Below, one piece after another: positions 2,869 through 26,768 of a DNA stretch of 27,560 nucleotides. Under the pieces are notes generated by a model, which was given only the letters and a program-made list of their open reading frames with translations, did not search any database and was not told the origin of the DNA. The DNA is from a virus (taxonomy: Duplodnaviria; Caudoviricetes): the IMG/VR virus record IMGVR_UViG_3300034093_003590, positions 1 to 27,560 of that record. One strand, 5' to 3'. Every line of letters starts with the position of its first letter. The stretch's first letter is position 1. The position numbers and the translations under genes were made by a program.

Positions 2869-3291
2869 TTAGGAAAAATGTTTATTTATGTCGATAATTT
2901 TTAATTCATCGTTTTTTACGATTATCATTTTATTTTGATATTCGTCCCAATTTATTTTTACATTTTTATAGTCTATGTTACCAACTTCGTGTTCACTGAT
3001 TTTCTCTATTAATTTATTTAATGCATTAATAGTATAAAAACACTCACCTTTTTTATGAACAATTATTGTTGATGGGAAGAATGAAGAGGTTTCTACTTTT
3101 TGACCTTCTTCAACTTTAACTAAAAAAGTTAAAATTTTTTTATTAACTTCTTCAAAATTATATTGAAATATGTTTTTTTCTTTTATTCCAAATCTTTTAT
3201 ATAAATAATTCTTAAAACTTTCTATTTTATCTTGATATACAAAAGATGCTAATGTTATATTTTTACCGCTCGATTCCATTTCCATTTCCAT
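2869..3291 (-). CDS. hypothetical phage protein (~140 aa)
   Basis: Contains TIIVHKKGECFYTINALNKLI and INWDEYQNKMII, a pattern I recall from uncultured large-phage proteins; ATG start at 3291 (or 3285/3279) preferred over the TTG at 3306. Confidence 0.75.
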   Translation of the reverse strand: MEMEMESSGKNITLASFVYQDKIESFKNYLYKRFGIKEKNIFQYNFEEVNKKILTFLVKVEEGQKVETSSFFPSTIIVHKKGECFYTINALNKLIEKISEHEVGNIDYKNVKINWDEYQNKMIIVKNDELKIIDINKHFS

Positions 3292-3871
3292 AAATGTAAG
3301 GGACAAATCTGTTTTTATTTTTTAATTTATATATTAAATCCCTACATTTATTAAATATCGTATAATCTATCAAAGTATTACCATTTAATCTTTTTATCCT
3401 TTCGACAATTTTTTCTTTTTTACCTTGAAAATAATTTAAAACATTTAAATCTACCCCAAATATTATATTTTCACCATATATGTATACCATATCGTTTTCA
3501 GAAAAATAAACAATTGGTGATTTAAGTGATAATATTTTTTTTATTATCCTGTAATTTATTTTTCTACTATTATAAAGGATATCTAAATAGACATATGGTA
3601 TATTACTACCGAAAGATTCAAAACAATATTCTTTAAATTGTTCAATATCACTTTCAAATTCAGATTTTCTTTCTGTTTTATCAAAAGTCCAAAATAACTT
3701 ATTACTTACTTTTTTATGTATTATGGAAATACCTTCTCCCAATAGTTCTTTAGATAATTTCCTACCAATTATCAATGTGGGTAACTCTTCATTAATACAT
3801 TCTAAACTTTCACAAATTTTAAAATTTTCAATTTCAATTTTTGTCTTTGAAATAATATTCCCTATATCCAT
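3263..3871 (-). CDS. hypothetical phage protein (202 aa)
   Basis: Long ORF with own upstream promoter-like element; IGNIIS...LPTLIIG motifs; overlaps next gene. Confidence 0.75.
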   Translation of the reverse strand: MDIGNIISKTKIEIENFKICESLECINEELPTLIIGRKLSKELLGEGISIIHKKVSNKLFWTFDKTERKSEFESDIEQFKEYCFESFGSNIPYVYLDILYNSRKINYRIIKKILSLKSPIVYFSENDMVYIYGENIIFGVDLNVLNYFQGKKEKIVERIKRLNGNTLIDYTIFNKCRDLIYKLKNKNRFVPYIYGNGNGIER

Positions 3872-20197: not shown

Positions 20198-23100
20198 TTA
20201 TATTTTCATTTTACTTATTAAATCACTTAATGTAAATTCCCCACTTAAAGGTGAAACTAACTTTTCTTCTAAAAACGAAGATAATGTAACACAAGTACCT
20301 GTACTGTCTTTAAATATTTCAGCGCTACCTCCTGTATTATTATCTAAATCCACTAAACTATTTAAATTAATAGGTACATTAGTACCGAGAATATTAATAT
20401 TAAATAAAAGTTTAATCATTTTATTATTTTTATCCATTAACTTAACTGAACTAGAGCCTTTAAGTTTGTAATCAGACCCATCTTTTTCCCAAAAACCTTC
20501 AATCTTAACAAATTTTAAACCACTACCTACTACACCAGTCGAATCATCGTAACCATCCTTTGTAATTATTAGTTTTAAAGATCTACCACCAACATTAATT
20601 ACCTTTTCACATGCATCGTAGTCATTAAACATATAATACATATTAAATCTATTCTTTTCATTTAATTCTTTTTCAAAAAGATTTACTAAATAAAAATGTT
20701 GTTCCCTATCAACTTTAGTTTTCCTAAATATACCTAAGTAACAACCATCTGGAGATGTACCCGACTGAAAAGATAACGTAGTATCATTTTTATATTTTTC
20801 ATAAATTACACCCAATTCAGTGTTTGGACCTAAACATAAATCTCCTTCATTACCAGCCCTTACAATATACCCTTTATCTTTAAGAAAATTAATTGCATCT
20901 GCTTCATTATCACAAACTTCATTTACTAAATTACCATATAACCTTTCATTTGTAAATAATGATTTTATTCTTTTTATTTCTTCGTTTAGTTTCATATTTG
21001 ATTTTTTATATGATTCATTTTTATTGATTTCATCATCAACCTCTTCCTCCACCTCTAATAAAAAGTTTTGAAAAGTTTTTATTTCGTCAGGAGTTAATTT
21101 TTTATTACCTGTTGCAATTACTGCAGTCTTTTCTTCTTTTGGTACCTTAGGTTTTTCAATATCTTTTAATTTAATAATAACATTAGATATTTTTTGGATG
21201 GATTCTGGTTCACCAACAGATTTATTAATTATCCCATCTAAAATAGGTATAACTAAATCAGTAACTTCTTTAATATCTTTGTGTTTATATCTCCTACCAT
21301 CAATTTGATATGATACCTCTTTTTTAAGTGCCGTAACTGAATTTAAAAGAGAATTCCCAATACTACTTTTTAAAATTTCTGAAATTTTAATAGAAAAATT
21401 ACTTAATAATGTAGTCTCTTCAATAAAAGTATCTTTATCTATAAAACCACTCTCACTTAATTTATCCGCTAATAAATCAATTTTCTCATCATTAGAAATG
21501 ATGTCAGTGTAATCTGGAGATAATTGTTCTTGATCTATTTCACCTGTTTCTGTAAATATTCCTAATGGGTCAAAACCGTAATTTAAATAAAGGTTTTGTA
21601 ACCCTTTTGCAATGTCTTCACTAAATACATATAATCCTGCGAATAGAGAACCTTGTATCACAAATTGTTTCACACCTTTAAAGTATGAATTAACCATCTT
21701 ATTTAAATCTTTACCAGATTTATTATATAATTCTTCTATTTTTTTAGGATCTTCGTTTTTAAATATATTAGTTAACACACCCTTTTGTTGTGAATCTAAA
21801 TTTTTTGCTTGTCTATTTAAATCAGTAATTAAATCTCTATATTTTGGATCGTCAATCTTCTTTAATAATTCTTTAAATTCATCAAACATCTTCAACTCTT
21901 CAGGATTTAATGTTCTTGACCATTGGGCGATTTCTCTTTCTAACCCTATTAAATCATCACCATATTGTGTAGTTATTTTACCTAACTCACCTAATTTGGC
22001 GGTAAATTTACTTCCTTTACCTGCCAATTTTAATGCTTCTCCTAAACCACCTAATGCACCTAATGCAGTTAAACTGCTATTAATTTCCCATCCTTCATCA
22101 CCTTCTACAACATAACCTATCGCACTAACTAAATCTATTAATCCACTAACCAATATCCCCACAGGACCAAATGCCAATGAAACTATTGAACCTATATCTG
22201 CTAAACAATGCCAATCAGACGCACAATCAGATGTCCAATCCTCTACTTTTTCCCATCCACTTCTAATATCTCCAATAGATTTACCACACCAATCTTTAAT
22301 GTTAATATCCACAACATAGTCACCCCCAACCCCATTGACAGTCACCTTTGCAGTACCATTTGGTTTAACACAACAACAAATAGTTTTATTATCAGTAAAT
22401 CCTATATTTGACATTCCTGTTGACCTAACTGAAGGATTTGTTGGTGTCATAAACATACCACCATTGTTTTTACATACATCACTCCATTCAAAAGTCTCAT
22501 CTACTTCAGGTGAATGTCCACCAGATCCTGGTGCCCCATAACCTACAGGTAAAGAAACTGTTTTATAAACTGGATTTGAACAGGCATTTTCATGTCTTTC
22601 TTTCGTTTGTAAAGAAATTATAATATTATGTTCATCGATTATCTCTAAAACTTTATCATATTTATTGTAAAAAATTAAATTTTCTTTAAATTCATCACCT
22701 AAACTATTTAATTTTTTTTGCAATTCTATTTTTTCATTATAATCTTTTAAATCATTATTGTATTTAGTTTGTGCCGCAACATTTAATTGATTAATATTTT
22801 GTAAATTTTGATAGTAACTACGTTGTAATCCACCTGAAGGATCTAAAACCATAGTATTCATATCATTGGCATCTCTAGGACCACCTGTATATGTATTATC
22901 CACCATTTCTTTTGGTCTTTCAGGTTTAAACCCTATAGATAAGTCACCAAAATAATTTTTTAGTTTATCATCGAAAGAACGACTAGTCAAAATCCTTTCT
23001 ACATCATCTGATCCAACTACACCTCCAGATAGAGCAGAATTCATCATATCAAATTTCAACTCCTCTAATTTTTCAATTATATATGAAGGGTTAATACATG

Positions 23101-23719
23101 TTGAGGCACCTATTTTACTGTTTAATATATCCGATATCTTATCACTGTTTACCGTTCTCTCACCCGTCCATCCAAAGTAAGTGTGAACTATATCCCAATT
23201 CTTTAAAGAGGACTGAAAGTTTCTATATTCTTTATAATTTTCATATGTTGGTTTAGTGATAGATACACCATCGGCACTATTTAAAGTTCTATCATATGCT
23301 GGATGTTGAGTATCTAAACCTGCAAAATCATCCACACCTTCCCATCCTTTACCTTTATTAGATGATAAATATTCCTTTCCTACCACACCCCAAGCAACTT
23401 TCATATATTCGTTGTTGTATGATCCTGTTTCATCTAACGTACCTGACATTCCTTTTTTCCTAAATTCAGTAATAACTTTAGATAATCTTTTATTATTACT
23501 TCTAACCCATTTCCTGAAATTGTCACCATCAGATTTGTTTTTTATATGATATTTAAATAACTCATCATCAGGTGCAACTTTAATGGCACCCACTCCCTTA
23601 AAAGGACTTGGTGGTGATACTTGTGCACCCATAGGTTTACCTTTTTTCTTAGGTGGATCTTGTTCCGTTAAAAATACCCTTTTAAACTGTTCTTCAGATA
23701 TTATTACTCTTTTTTTCAT
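20198..23719 (-). CDS. large multidomain protein with leader peptide, PT-TG-like hydrophobic hairpin and internal second leader
   Basis: 1173 aa; MKKRVIISEEQFKRVFLTEQ; HCLADIGSIVSLAFGPVGILVSGLIDLVSAIGYVVEGD; internal MKLNEEIKRIKSLFTNERLYGNLVNE at residue 909. Confidence 0.7.
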   Translation of the reverse strand: MKKRVIISEEQFKRVFLTEQDPPKKKGKPMGAQVSPPSPFKGVGAIKVAPDDELFKYHIKNKSDGDNFRKWVRSNNKRLSKVITEFRKKGMSGTLDETGSYNNEYMKVAWGVVGKEYLSSNKGKGWEGVDDFAGLDTQHPAYDRTLNSADGVSITKPTYENYKEYRNFQSSLKNWDIVHTYFGWTGERTVNSDKISDILNSKIGASTCINPSYIIEKLEELKFDMMNSALSGGVVGSDDVERILTSRSFDDKLKNYFGDLSIGFKPERPKEMVDNTYTGGPRDANDMNTMVLDPSGGLQRSYYQNLQNINQLNVAAQTKYNNDLKDYNEKIELQKKLNSLGDEFKENLIFYNKYDKVLEIIDEHNIIISLQTKERHENACSNPVYKTVSLPVGYGAPGSGGHSPEVDETFEWSDVCKNNGGMFMTPTNPSVRSTGMSNIGFTDNKTICCCVKPNGTAKVTVNGVGGDYVVDINIKDWCGKSIGDIRSGWEKVEDWTSDCASDWHCLADIGSIVSLAFGPVGILVSGLIDLVSAIGYVVEGDEGWEINSSLTALGALGGLGEALKLAGKGSKFTAKLGELGKITTQYGDDLIGLEREIAQWSRTLNPEELKMFDEFKELLKKIDDPKYRDLITDLNRQAKNLDSQQKGVLTNIFKNEDPKKIEELYNKSGKDLNKMVNSYFKGVKQFVIQGSLFAGLYVFSEDIAKGLQNLYLNYGFDPLGIFTETGEIDQEQLSPDYTDIISNDEKIDLLADKLSESGFIDKDTFIEETTLLSNFSIKISEILKSSIGNSLLNSVTALKKEVSYQIDGRRYKHKDIKEVTDLVIPILDGIINKSVGEPESIQKISNVIIKLKDIEKPKVPKEEKTAVIATGNKKLTPDEIKTFQNFLLEVEEEVDDEINKNESYKKSNMKLNEEIKRIKSLFTNERLYGNLVNEVCDNEADAINFLKDKGYIVRAGNEGDLCLGPNTELGVIYEKYKNDTTLSFQSGTSPDGCYLGIFRKTKVDREQHFYLVNLFEKELNEKNRFNMYYMFNDYDACEKVINVGGRSLKLIITKDGYDDSTGVVGSGLKFVKIEGFWEKDGSDYKLKGSSSVKLMDKNNKMIKLLFNINILGTNVPINLNSLVDLDNNTGGSAEIFKDSTGTCVTLSSFLEEKLVSPLSGEFTLSDLISKMKI

Positions 23720-23746: not shown

Positions 23747-24907
23747 TTAAACATTAGTTAGTACAAACGAACCAACATCCATTTTATCTGTTTCAACTGC
23801 CTTTTGAATCACAATTCTTTGTTTATTTGGATCAATGTTCAATTCTTTATATATAAAACTTACATATTCTTTTCTGAATTTGATATTCCCCTTATCATTT
23901 TTATCTACTAATGGAACGTTCATTTTTGAACGGAAATTAAATTTGTTTGCCCCAACCTTTCTAATAATTGCAACTTTAGTACCATTTTGATTTTTAACAA
24001 CATATCTTTCTCCTTCTACACCACCTTCTGCCTTCGCATCGTCAAATGTATCTCCAGTAATTTCTTCATCATCTTTACCTGCACCAAGTTCTATCATTTT
24101 TTCGGTTGGTTTAAGACCCAATGTTTTATACATTATTCGTATCTCATCACCTTTTCTAAACAAACCTTCTTTCTCAAAAGTTTGGTAGAAGTTTTTCATA
24201 CAAAACTCTACACCCTGTATATCTTCTTTTTCGAATTCTTCTTTAGTTTTACCTTGTCTTACTTGTTTGTACATATCCTTTATATGATCTCTACATTCCT
24301 CTTTACTCTTATTAATCTCTTTTCCAGTTGCATTAACATCGTCTTTTCTTTGTTGTTTAACATCACCCGCATCCTTTTTTGTAGAGAACTCTGGATTAGT
24401 ACCCGATTTAGATTTAAACCAATCCGAAGCCAATACCGTAGTTAACTGTTTTTTAAAATCGTCAACATTGACATTATCCTTAGTAGATTTAAAAATAAAT
24501 TTATCTTTAATCTCGTCAACGACATATTTTAACTCTTTATCTGCACCAAACGATAATGTACTTTCCCAAGATGTTACAATTTTGTTAGAATCTTTATTTA
24601 AAGTAATAGAAAGTTGTAAAGTTGCCCTATTAAAATCAATTTTTTTAATATCTTCATCAGGATCATTAGTTTCTATAGCATTTTTAACTTTAACAATATT
24701 ATATTGGTTAAATATTTTAGTATATCTTTCACTTTCAGGTTTCAATTGATCCTGTTCAAAACCATCACTTTTTAGTATATTTGAATAATCCTCAACAGGA
24801 TTACCACTAACGTCCTCAGTTATAAGATTACCGAACATTCTCTCTTCAGTAAAAAGAGACTTCATTCTCTCAATCTCTTCGTTTAAAGTATTAATATTTC
24901 TTTTCAT
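23747..24907 (-). CDS. hypothetical protein with leader peptide (386 aa), putative virion-packaged protein
   Basis: Start revised to ATG 24907 (MKRNINTLNEEIERMKSLFTEERMFGNLITE) because the track's TTG start at 24961 lies upstream of the late motif and inside a terminator. Confidence 0.75.
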   Translation of the reverse strand: MKRNINTLNEEIERMKSLFTEERMFGNLITEDVSGNPVEDYSNILKSDGFEQDQLKPESERYTKIFNQYNIVKVKNAIETNDPDEDIKKIDFNRATLQLSITLNKDSNKIVTSWESTLSFGADKELKYVVDEIKDKFIFKSTKDNVNVDDFKKQLTTVLASDWFKSKSGTNPEFSTKKDAGDVKQQRKDDVNATGKEINKSKEECRDHIKDMYKQVRQGKTKEEFEKEDIQGVEFCMKNFYQTFEKEGLFRKGDEIRIMYKTLGLKPTEKMIELGAGKDDEEITGDTFDDAKAEGGVEGERYVVKNQNGTKVAIIRKVGANKFNFRSKMNVPLVDKNDKGNIKFRKEYVSFIYKELNIDPNKQRIVIQKAVETDKMDVGSFVLTNV

Positions 24908-24919
24908 TTTTTTCTTTTT

Positions 24920-24930
24920 ATATAAATATT
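24920..24930 (-). promoter_or_regulatory. putative phage late promoter AATATTTATAT
   Basis: Identical motif 12 nt upstream of ATG 24907. Confidence 0.7.
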
Positions 24931-24959: not shown

Positions 24960-25000
24960 AAAAAATCCTCACCATATAATATATATACGGTAAGGATTTT
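24960..25000 (-). terminator. intrinsic terminator after tail tube gene
   Basis: Minus strand AAAATCCTTACCGTATA-TATAT-TATATGGTGAGGATTTT(TT): long stem with G-U pairs and T tract. Confidence 0.75.
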
Positions 25001-25582: not shown

Positions 25583-26404
25583 TTATTTTTTTATAATTAT
25601 TCTTTTCTTTTTAGGATTTTTAGGGTCAGATGTATCGTAAATAATAAAATTTATTTCAGGATACAATTTTTGTAACTCATCCTCTATTAATTTTTCTATT
25701 ATTTTAACATTATCTTCATCATCGTCACTAAAACCTACACTAATCCCTTCAAACTCTGAATTATTTTTTATATTACCAATTTGTTTCACCACCTTTTCAA
25801 CAAAACTTCTAAAGGCAATCTCCTTCCCTTTTTCAGGATTTGTACCACTCACATTTAAATCAAATTTATTTAAAAACTCTTCAGAAGAAACTGGATGATA
25901 ATCCTGTAAATTTAAATACTCATCGATAGATAAACCATTTAGATTTTTCTCCATTTCTTTTCTCTCATCCCAATTGAGTGACTTTTCAATTAGTATCTTA
26001 ATACCGTCTTTTATGGCTTGTGGTGAATTAGATCTAGCAGTAATAATTGAGAAGTCACTACCACTAATTAAAGCCTCTTTAAACTTATTAAAACTTGGTC
26101 CGTAACTTCTATAATTTAGTGATTCTTTTACATCTCTTATAAATGCGTCATAATCTCTAAAATCTTTAAAAGATTGTTTAATATCATTGTTGAGATATCT
26201 AAACTCTGTCCCTATTTTATGTCTGATACTTCTAAATTGTTCTGTAGAAACTGATATCGGTGCCCACATTAAACCATTAATACTATAATCTAAATGTATT
26301 CTTGTTGGCATATTAAGAATATTGTCATCCCAATCAAATGAGTAAACCTTTTTCTTTGTTTCCTTTAAAATTTTGTATTGTGATTCACTAATTTTAATAT
26401 TCAT
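25583..26404 (-). CDS. HAD-superfamily phosphatase-like protein with leader peptide
   Basis: Motif I YSFDWDDNI, motif II IITARS, candidate motif III Lys in EKGKE, motif IV GFSDDD; N-terminus MNIKISESQYKILKE. Confidence 0.75.
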   Translation of the reverse strand: MNIKISESQYKILKETKKKVYSFDWDDNILNMPTRIHLDYSINGLMWAPISVSTEQFRSIRHKIGTEFRYLNNDIKQSFKDFRDYDAFIRDVKESLNYRSYGPSFNKFKEALISGSDFSIITARSNSPQAIKDGIKILIEKSLNWDERKEMEKNLNGLSIDEYLNLQDYHPVSSEEFLNKFDLNVSGTNPEKGKEIAFRSFVEKVVKQIGNIKNNSEFEGISVGFSDDDEDNVKIIEKLIEDELQKLYPEINFIIYDTSDPKNPKKKRIIIKK

Positions 26405-26427: not shown

Positions 26428-26453
26428 AAAAAAACCCATCATAGGATGGGTTT
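26428..26453 (-). terminator. intrinsic terminator after sheath + 96-aa gene
   Basis: Minus strand AAACCCATC-CTAT-GATGGGTTT followed by TTTT. Confidence 0.8.
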
Positions 26454-26477: not shown

Positions 26478-26768
26478 TTAATATTCTATTGGCATATTAC
26501 CTTTGTCTTTAAGACAATTTAAAGCAGTTACGGCTTTCATACCCATACCAAGTGGATCACTAGCAACCATTTTTGCCAATTCCTCCACACATTTAGCAGC
26601 ATCACCTGACACACATGCCATAGGTGGTTTAATACCAGCATCTTTACAACATTTAGCCAAATCATCCTTTGGATCACTTTCGGCTTCCTCTCTTAATACA
26701 ACCCCAACAATTCTTTTTAAATCACTTTCAGTAAGAGTAATGATTTTTCCATTTTTTTTAATTTTCAT
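26478..26768 (-). CDS. small Cys-rich protein with leader peptide
   Basis: 96 aa; MKIKKNGKIITLTESDLKRIVGVVLREE then a ~68-aa domain with 5 Cys. Confidence 0.75.
   Translation of the reverse strand: MKIKKNGKIITLTESDLKRIVGVVLREEAESDPKDDLAKCCKDAGIKPPMACVSGDAAKCVEELAKMVASDPLGMGMKAVTALNCLKDKGNMPIEY

Follow-up and report, generated by a model that had tools for sequence, protein, structure and literature searches.

An internal leader-like tag at the joint of two fused phage proteins as a predicted cleavage site and candidate second translation start

Introduction

In phage T4, IPII, IPIII, and Alt carry a short capsid-targeting (CTS) leader that is common to otherwise unrelated proteins, ends in I/L-x-E, and is processed by gp21 (PMC9958956, PMC5694885). 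In this system, Alt is cut at both ends, at ITE-6 and LTE-619 (PMC5694885), and gp23 loses 65 residues (PMC9958956). According to the accessible parts of these reports, the T4 cuts either take off propeptides or break them down, and none divides a precursor into two complete proteins (PMC9958956, PMC5694885), and the choice of head contents in T4-type phages is still unresolved, with one defined signal, which is N-terminal (PMC9958956). Related processing has been described for the ejection-protein propeptides of SPN3US and phiKZ (gp245/gp175), which are cut after Glu at several sites per propeptide; in addition, the paralogues gp53 and gp54 have identical N-termini (PMC10052503, PMC5694885). 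A third group, the polyvalent proteins, consists of phage proteins built from several modules, for which packaging and processing have been proposed, with the cuts attributed to embedded zincin-like peptidases and with known effector domains among the modules (PMC5512222).

Internal initiation offers a further point of comparison. T7 gp4A/4B is a nested in-frame gene with an internal start. In Rpn (10.1101/2023.05.02.539157) and M13 G1p/G11p (PMC9228878), in-frame internal starts allow the C-terminal part to be made separately.

Here, we analyze a 1173-aa protein from a lake phage in which a second leader-like tag lies in the middle of the chain, at the joint of two modules. Like the T4 leader, this tag is short, is shared by unrelated proteins, and ends in a site of the I/L-x-E kind, and a gp21-type protease is encoded in related genomes; the two ends of Alt resemble the cuts that we predict on either side of the tag. 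The T4 CTS, however, is ~10 aa long and N-terminal, whereas the tag described here comprises 26 aa, forms two helices, and occurs at N-terminal, internal, and C-terminal positions. The SPN3US/phiKZ system shares with our locus the cuts after Glu but differs in its A-x-E motif and S80 protease; as far as the accessible text of those papers goes, its substrate cuts give N-terminal propeptides, those of the protease itself excepted, and no internal second leader is described (PMC10052503, PMC5694885). Unlike the nested parts of Rpn and M13 G1p/G11p as described in those sources, the nested part here was once a gene in its own right and carries its own tag, and its relatives show split and tag-duplicated states. 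By analogy, the joint likely works like the T4 capsid-targeting/gp21 system, with packaging and cleavage being predicted. We found no description of the tag or the junction in searches of the open-access literature, and a 2026 review of jumbo phages (PMC13282480) makes no mention of polyproteins, propeptides, or capsid targeting.

Results

The window, i.e., the whole stretch of DNA subjected to our analysis, is a 27.6-kb virus record (27,560 nucleotides) in which every long gene lies on the minus strand; all window coordinates given below refer to that strand. PHROG assignments in the window include tail sheath, tube, baseplate hub, wedge, an ssDNA-binding protein, and a UvsX-like recombinase, and the 1173-aa gene and its neighbors are located between the tail tube and the baseplate hub, outside the head genes. 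The runs in which the window sequence occurs are lake-water metagenomes, and none of those listed is an RNA run. A 54.8-kb record encodes an identical 1173-aa protein, and its CheckV rating of 16% complete scales to a genome of ~340 kb. ORFs of 1164-1182 aa in L003, L006, L007, and L011 represent the same single fused frame, and no match to a cultured phage was found among 50,697 phage records.

A matrix built from 78 tag-led true starts shows that translation starts in this group lack a Shine-Dalgarno (SD) sequence and are A-rich at -13 to -11 and at -3. SD-less starts in an A-rich context have been described in Flavobacterium (PMC6847099), and bS21 is present in two of five related records (G003 and G004); together, these features suggest a Bacteroidota host. 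The bS21-encoding huge phages of Bacteroidetes (PMC9723584) have in common with our group the lake habitat, bS21 (in those two records), SD-less A-rich starts, and the ~340-kb genome. Unlike the bS21 clades described there, in which terminase, portal, protease, and capsid genes form a block with bS21, G003 and G004 carry bS21 far from the protease gene, and the word "leader" does not appear in the main text of that paper.

The 386-aa gene next to the fused gene (23747-24907) is preceded by a promoter-like TATTTAT motif (24922-24928), of which only one other copy, located inside the 1173-aa ORF (23365-23371), occurs between 24921 and 16868. Transcription of the 386-, 1173-, and 783-aa genes as one mRNA probably starts from the copy at 24922-24928. 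Terminator-like hairpins were observed after the tube gene (24962-25000) and after a 96-aa gene (26432-26453), each being followed by TATTTAT and a leader-bearing gene. A variable array of one to three small genes (26478-26768) occupies the space between the sheath gene and a 273-aa gene; the array also occurs at L008 4280-5204 and L011 879-2383, and its leaders read L-[TS]-E-S-[DE]-L while the bodies change.

The fused ORF (20198-23719) encodes 1173 aa (131 kDa) and begins with a first leader (residues 1-19; 23663-23719) that ends in L-T-E19 and belongs to a family distinct from that of the internal tag. This leader type is N-terminal in 82/82 matches, and I-S-E9 and L-T-E19 are kept in 23 and 20 of 26 homologues, respectively. 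The upstream module (residues 20-908; 20996-23662), which is a separate gene in split relatives, is helical and contains a Cys-rich beta region and a conserved hydrophobic hairpin (approximately residues 504-540; 22100-22210; hydropathy up to 2.1) that may be a membrane-inserting segment. It ends in a variable linker, acidic and K/N-rich (residues 887-908; 20996-21061), whose last 13 nt constitute a start-like A-rich context. Met909 opens the 26-aa internal tag (residues 909-934; 20918-20995), and the downstream module (residues 935-1173; 20198-20917) follows, forming a compact alpha/beta fold in the model.

The sequence-only reading had described a second leader at this place, and its details hold: residues 909-934 read MKLNEEIKRIKSLFTNERLYGNLVNE, the in-frame internal ATG is preceded by the A-rich tract ATAAAAAATCAAAT, and the acidic linker LLEVEEEVDDE lies upstream. 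The internal tag matches residues 8-31 of the 386-aa protein (24815-24886), which carries the N-terminal copy, at 17 of 24 positions; the next best match, among 7,292 segments in 11 long ORFs of the window, reaches 7/24. A sequence check across the junction revealed no stop or indel, and bridging contigs (contigs, not raw reads) were obtained in 8/8 runs. Four of these runs (X17-X20) are not flagged as a possible source of the record, and in each of them one contig crosses the junction with neither a mismatch nor a gap; the four runs flagged as a possible source give the same result. The internal tag is kept in 26/26 long homologue clusters, the window's own protein among them, at 32-100% identity over residues 880-1173 (32-85% for the 25 others). 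In addition, relatives carry the downstream module as a separate, tag-led gene, which shows that a 265-aa gene was fused to its upstream neighbor, as the sequence-only reading had proposed. It is virtually certain that the fusion of these two neighboring phage genes is real, and it is old. A second fused variant, of the L011/P0018 type, was found in the same lake sample (run X12, record 7).

Across 139 fetched loci, the tag was found in 124 distinct contexts: 96 N-terminal ones on unrelated proteins, 22 internal, and 4 C-terminal, excluding two contig-end cases. Every internal or C-terminal copy in these loci sits at this one junction. The earlier idea of a mobile module is a loose fit at best: the tag heads many unrelated proteins, but its internal and C-terminal copies are confined to a single place.

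Four states of the junction can be distinguished. In the split state, a separate gene headed by the tag encodes the module, and TATTTAT often precedes it (L043, L046, L049, L050, L058, L100, and others). The window represents the fused state with Met, and a fused state without a near Met is found in P0033 and L032 as well as in P0037 and P0047. In the trailer state (L044, L051, L053, and L054), a tag closes the large protein, and the module gene, which begins 5-10 nt downstream, opens with another copy. These large proteins end in L-I-K-E-stop (L051 and L054), L-I-K-D-stop (L053), or L-I-K-stop (L044, where the stop occupies the would-be Glu codon), such that the stop falls on the residue matching window E934 or directly beside it. 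Purifying selection acts on the trailer tags (pS of 0.38-0.64 versus pN of 0.05-0.12 in five more diverged pairs; 0.07 versus 0 in a close pair), which lack the Met (0/4). At tag position -2, Asn is found in 4/4 trailers and 13/22 fused forms, whereas N-terminal tags have Glu instead (88/98). P0147, probably a truncated record, was left out of the trailers, and P0003, P0005, and P0006, which are called as 265-276-aa proteins and were available at the protein level only, were left out of the split count.

Several neighboring observations concern joints of this kind. Split forms nested among fused ones (L041, ~3590-3680; L042, ~3200-3294) have a stop that overlaps the start region of the next gene, and their C-terminal ends may be a decayed trailer tag. 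Two fused proteins, P0032 and P0048, have two copies of the tag, one N-terminal and the other at the joint. The 273-aa gene of the window (25583-26404) stands alone in most relatives and is fused behind a 720-770-aa module in four (L011 2856-5927, L124 516-3605, L104 4335-7331, and L132 554-3523); three of these joints read K-N-E-S..Y-K-K..L-[TV]-E-S with no Met, and that of L132 reads L-K-E-S followed by Met and a leader. The linker in the window ends (20996-21025) in K-N-E-S-Y-K-K, similar to the K-N-E-S-I-I-Y-K-K found where the 273-aa homologues are fused, and this end is possibly a further joint motif or cut site.

For the upstream-module phylogeny, 60 rows were collected, and 10 with >95% identity, in some cases over a partial overlap, were removed. 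The 50 remaining rows comprise 29 fused forms that have the Met, 2 fused forms that lack a near Met, 15 split forms, and 4 trailers, with six changes of state. In the 15 split rows, the large protein has no recognizable tag, indicating that it does not need one. After removal of 20 more near-copies and long branches, a 30-row IQ-TREE analysis gave at least five state changes and rejected both a single fused clade (AU test, p = 1.3e-46) and a single trailer clade (p = 1e-5). In the module tree (33 rows, tag removed), 10 split rows are separated from 23 others (17 fused, 4 trailer, and 2 split) by a branch with 100/100 support. The trailer L044 is sister to the no-Met fusion L032 in the module tree (100/98), and the trailers L051/L054 are sister to the no-Met fusion P0033 in the upstream tree (84/90). 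This pairing of every trailer lineage with a fusion that lacks the Met suggests that the two states exchange, conceivably via tag duplication or recombination between tandem copies. The simplest reading of these unrooted trees is one fusion followed by at least three re-splittings, two of them by tag duplication. Judging from the sequences, the junction arose by fusion, fission, and tag duplication of two neighbors.

A cut at the joint by a T4-type head protease, after E913/E934, is probable, and the likely cut sites predicted here, L-N-E913 and V-N-E934, flank the tag. The window protein contains 26 [LIV]-x-E sites, of which two, E913 and E934, and no others, occur in 26/26 homologues. All 22 fused loci have Glu at tag +8 and L/I/V-x-E at the tag end (V-N-E934 in the window, with L-N-E913 at the tag start); in N-terminal tags, Glu is found at +8 in 46/96, and L/I/V-x-E lies just past the tag core in 79/96. 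Because the tag is conserved as a block, the retention of these L-x-E sites does not count as separate proof of cleavage. Conservation of the tag stops at the Glu, and the stop at the predicted Glu in trailers gives circumstantial support to a cut. We also considered L-L-E889 in the linker as the main cut and rejected it, since it is kept in only 17/26 homologues. In the full-length model, pLDDT is <50 over residues 891-930 (pTM of 0.43), and the downstream module modeled alone reaches a pLDDT of 85.7; its product would have a computed size of 26.7 kDa if cut and 29.8 kDa if started at M909.

An S77 (T4 gp21-type) protease scored above the cut-off in three of five related records, all of them from relatives that are of the split type or more distant. 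The 54.8-kb record of the window's phage and two further records (0/2), all of which are fragments, yielded no such protease. In the related records, the gene after the protease and scaffold, presumed from its position and size to encode the capsid protein, contains L-T-E60 or L-N-E60, a site close to the 65 residues removed from T4 gp23.

Use of M909 as a start is somewhat probable. Among 38 distinct fused junctions, Met is found at -17/-18 in 33, at -19 to -22 in 3 (hence within -22 in 36/38), at -29 in 1, and not at all in 1, while the chance of a Met at two given positions is 3%; these junctions are related by descent, and their counts, like the p-values below, overstate independence. In 11 further internal tags, Met lies within -22 in eight and at -24 in one, and two have none nearer than -36. 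P0033 has no Met, L032 has one only at -29 in a poor context, and the nearest Met is at -36 in P0037 and -42 in P0047. Some fused lineages thus lack a near Met, which suggests that the start is usual but dispensable.

Scored with the matrix from the 78 true starts, the M909 context falls in the 99th percentile of 764 internal ATGs. Median scores are 3.29 for fused contexts, 3.44 for true starts, and -3.99 for the null; of the 17 fused contexts, 12 lie above the 90th percentile, whereas five (L011, L056, L057, L085, and L087) score like null ATGs. The fused median is higher than that of 112 composition-matched ATGs (p = 8e-5) and of synonymous shuffles (p = 0.004). With a score of 4.73, M909 ranks second of 20 in-frame ATGs, above M1, and third of 144 internal ATGs in the window; the unconserved M1101 outscores it (5.77). 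M909 is preceded by A at -3 and -12, two of the four positions that favor initiation in F. johnsoniae (PMC6847099). Collectively, Met retention and the start-like context give circumstantial support to an internal start.

Two other routes to a separate downstream product were considered and rejected. SD-like words were found in 0/78 true starts and 0/17 fused contexts, and TATTTAT, as a promoter for a nested gene, precedes 0/17 fused Mets versus 46/78 true starts; sigma-70-like sites in the region are at chance (66 versus 57.8 +/- 7.2). Given that no promoter-like motif precedes M909, initiation there would use the same polycistronic message that probably serves the 1173- and 783-aa genes.

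Neither module matches a Pfam or PHROG domain. A search of 48 downstream-module homologues against Pfam gave only four single-member weak hits, one of which was an EF-hand (1/48). PDB sequence searches returned no match for the downstream-module profile and only helical noise for the full-length profile, Foldseek found nothing at E<=0.001 in PDB and BFVD, and the ESM Atlas contained nothing usable for the downstream module, whose best VIA-align match has a Z of 5.3 (rmsd of 3.1, 86 aligned). The absence of a structural match does not show a new fold. A profile search yielded 354 clusters at E<=0.001, many of them via the tag alone.

Other features touch on function. The upstream module contains invariant cysteines, its hairpin region is a weak PT-TG look-alike (cosine of 0.82, rank 20), which we regard as a lead only, and PG-binding Pfam families match weakly in 3/19 upstream-module homologues and not in the window protein. 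An EF-hand- or dockerin-like loop (D-x-N/D-x-D-G-x-I-D) directly follows the tag in many relatives (e.g., the downstream modules of L043, L044, L046, L049, L053, L085, L087, and L100) and is missing in the window. The motif L-x-x-G-S-x-G-x-x-V-x-x-L-Q, which we take to be peptidoglycan-binding-like, often follows the tag in homologues in the position of window 23747-24907 (L030, L045, L046, L049, L051, and L072) and is absent from the window's 386-aa protein. Given the hydrophobic hairpin, the conserved Cys, and the PG-binding and EF-hand-like motifs of relatives, our best guess, held with low confidence, is that the products are ejection proteins acting in the host envelope.

Discussion

The reading that we tentatively prefer, with a probability of about 0.45, is that the 1173-aa protein is a T4-type head-cargo precursor with both a cut at the joint and a start at M909. 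The sequence-only reading had offered proteolysis or independent translation; the two are not alternatives, and a little under even odds would be a reasonable estimate that both apply. A late polycistronic mRNA would give the full 131-kDa precursor together with some 30-kDa protein from M909, and the leaders would draw both into the prohead core. There, a T4-type head protease would cut after E913 and E934 during maturation, stripping the leaders and leaving ~100-kDa and ~27-kDa proteins, the same products that split relatives encode by two genes. Cutting would render the fused and split forms interchangeable, which would allow the joint to fuse and split repeatedly. The products would serve as ejection proteins in the host envelope, the weakest step of the scheme. 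Weighing against the head-cargo reading are the position of these genes among tail genes and the detection of the protease in split-type or still more distant relatives only.

If the protein were a polyprotein only, the head protease would cut the joint, and Met909 would be a relic or a tag-helix residue that never serves as a start. Fused forms without a near Met in several lineages fit this view, as do the lack of a promoter-like motif before all 17 fused Mets and the fact that K/N-rich linkers are A-rich anyway. Met is nevertheless kept beside a hypervariable linker at 33/38 junctions and in 0/4 trailers, and its context beats both composition-matched ATGs and synonymous shuffles, so we judge this version unlikely.

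Another version keeps the start and drops the cut: a long and a short protein would be made, with the tag as an assembly helix for a tail or baseplate partner. The tail-cluster location and the start-like context agree with it, and Glu-rich helices often give L-x-E, as the 26 sites in the 1173-aa protein illustrate. It leaves unaccounted for, however, the trailer stops at the Glu position in two independent lineages, the end of conservation at that Glu, and the recognizable tube and hub proteins that carry no tag, and we consider it rather improbable.

A plain two-domain protein, neither cut nor internally started, would tether two partners, with the tag binding something at the joint. Although the fusion is kept in homologues down to 32% identity and fused forms without Met persist, such a protein is hard to reconcile with repeated re-splitting, Met retention, and a joint without confident packing in the model, and it appears distinctly improbable. 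An assembly error or a recent stop-codon loss in this strain, which the two genes of many relatives might suggest, can be dismissed for all practical purposes, given bridging contigs in 8/8 runs (four not flagged as source) and 25 other fused clusters at 32-85% identity.

Returning to the head-cargo precursor, it resembles the polyvalent proteins in being a multi-module phage protein, but the 1173-aa protein showed no zincin-like peptidase or effector domain by Pfam/PHROG family or fold match. New here are the series of fused, split, and trailer forms, the stops of the latter falling at the predicted cut, and the retention of a start. For annotation, this implies a warning, as gene callers report the same module either as a gene of 265 aa or as the end of one of 1,170 aa. 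The natural series (split, fused, fused without Met, and tag duplicated with a stop at the expected cut site) yields precise predictions of where the cuts fall; it also suggests that the head address works internally and C-terminally. We put forward, as a speculative and on balance doubtful extension, that the tag is a position-independent head address that would function whether it opens a protein, lies in its middle, or closes it. A single joint of 26 codons would then act as the C-terminal address of the large protein, as the cut site, and, for the small protein, as both start and N-terminal address, and lineages may swap protease-made for stop-codon-made products by duplicating or collapsing the tag.
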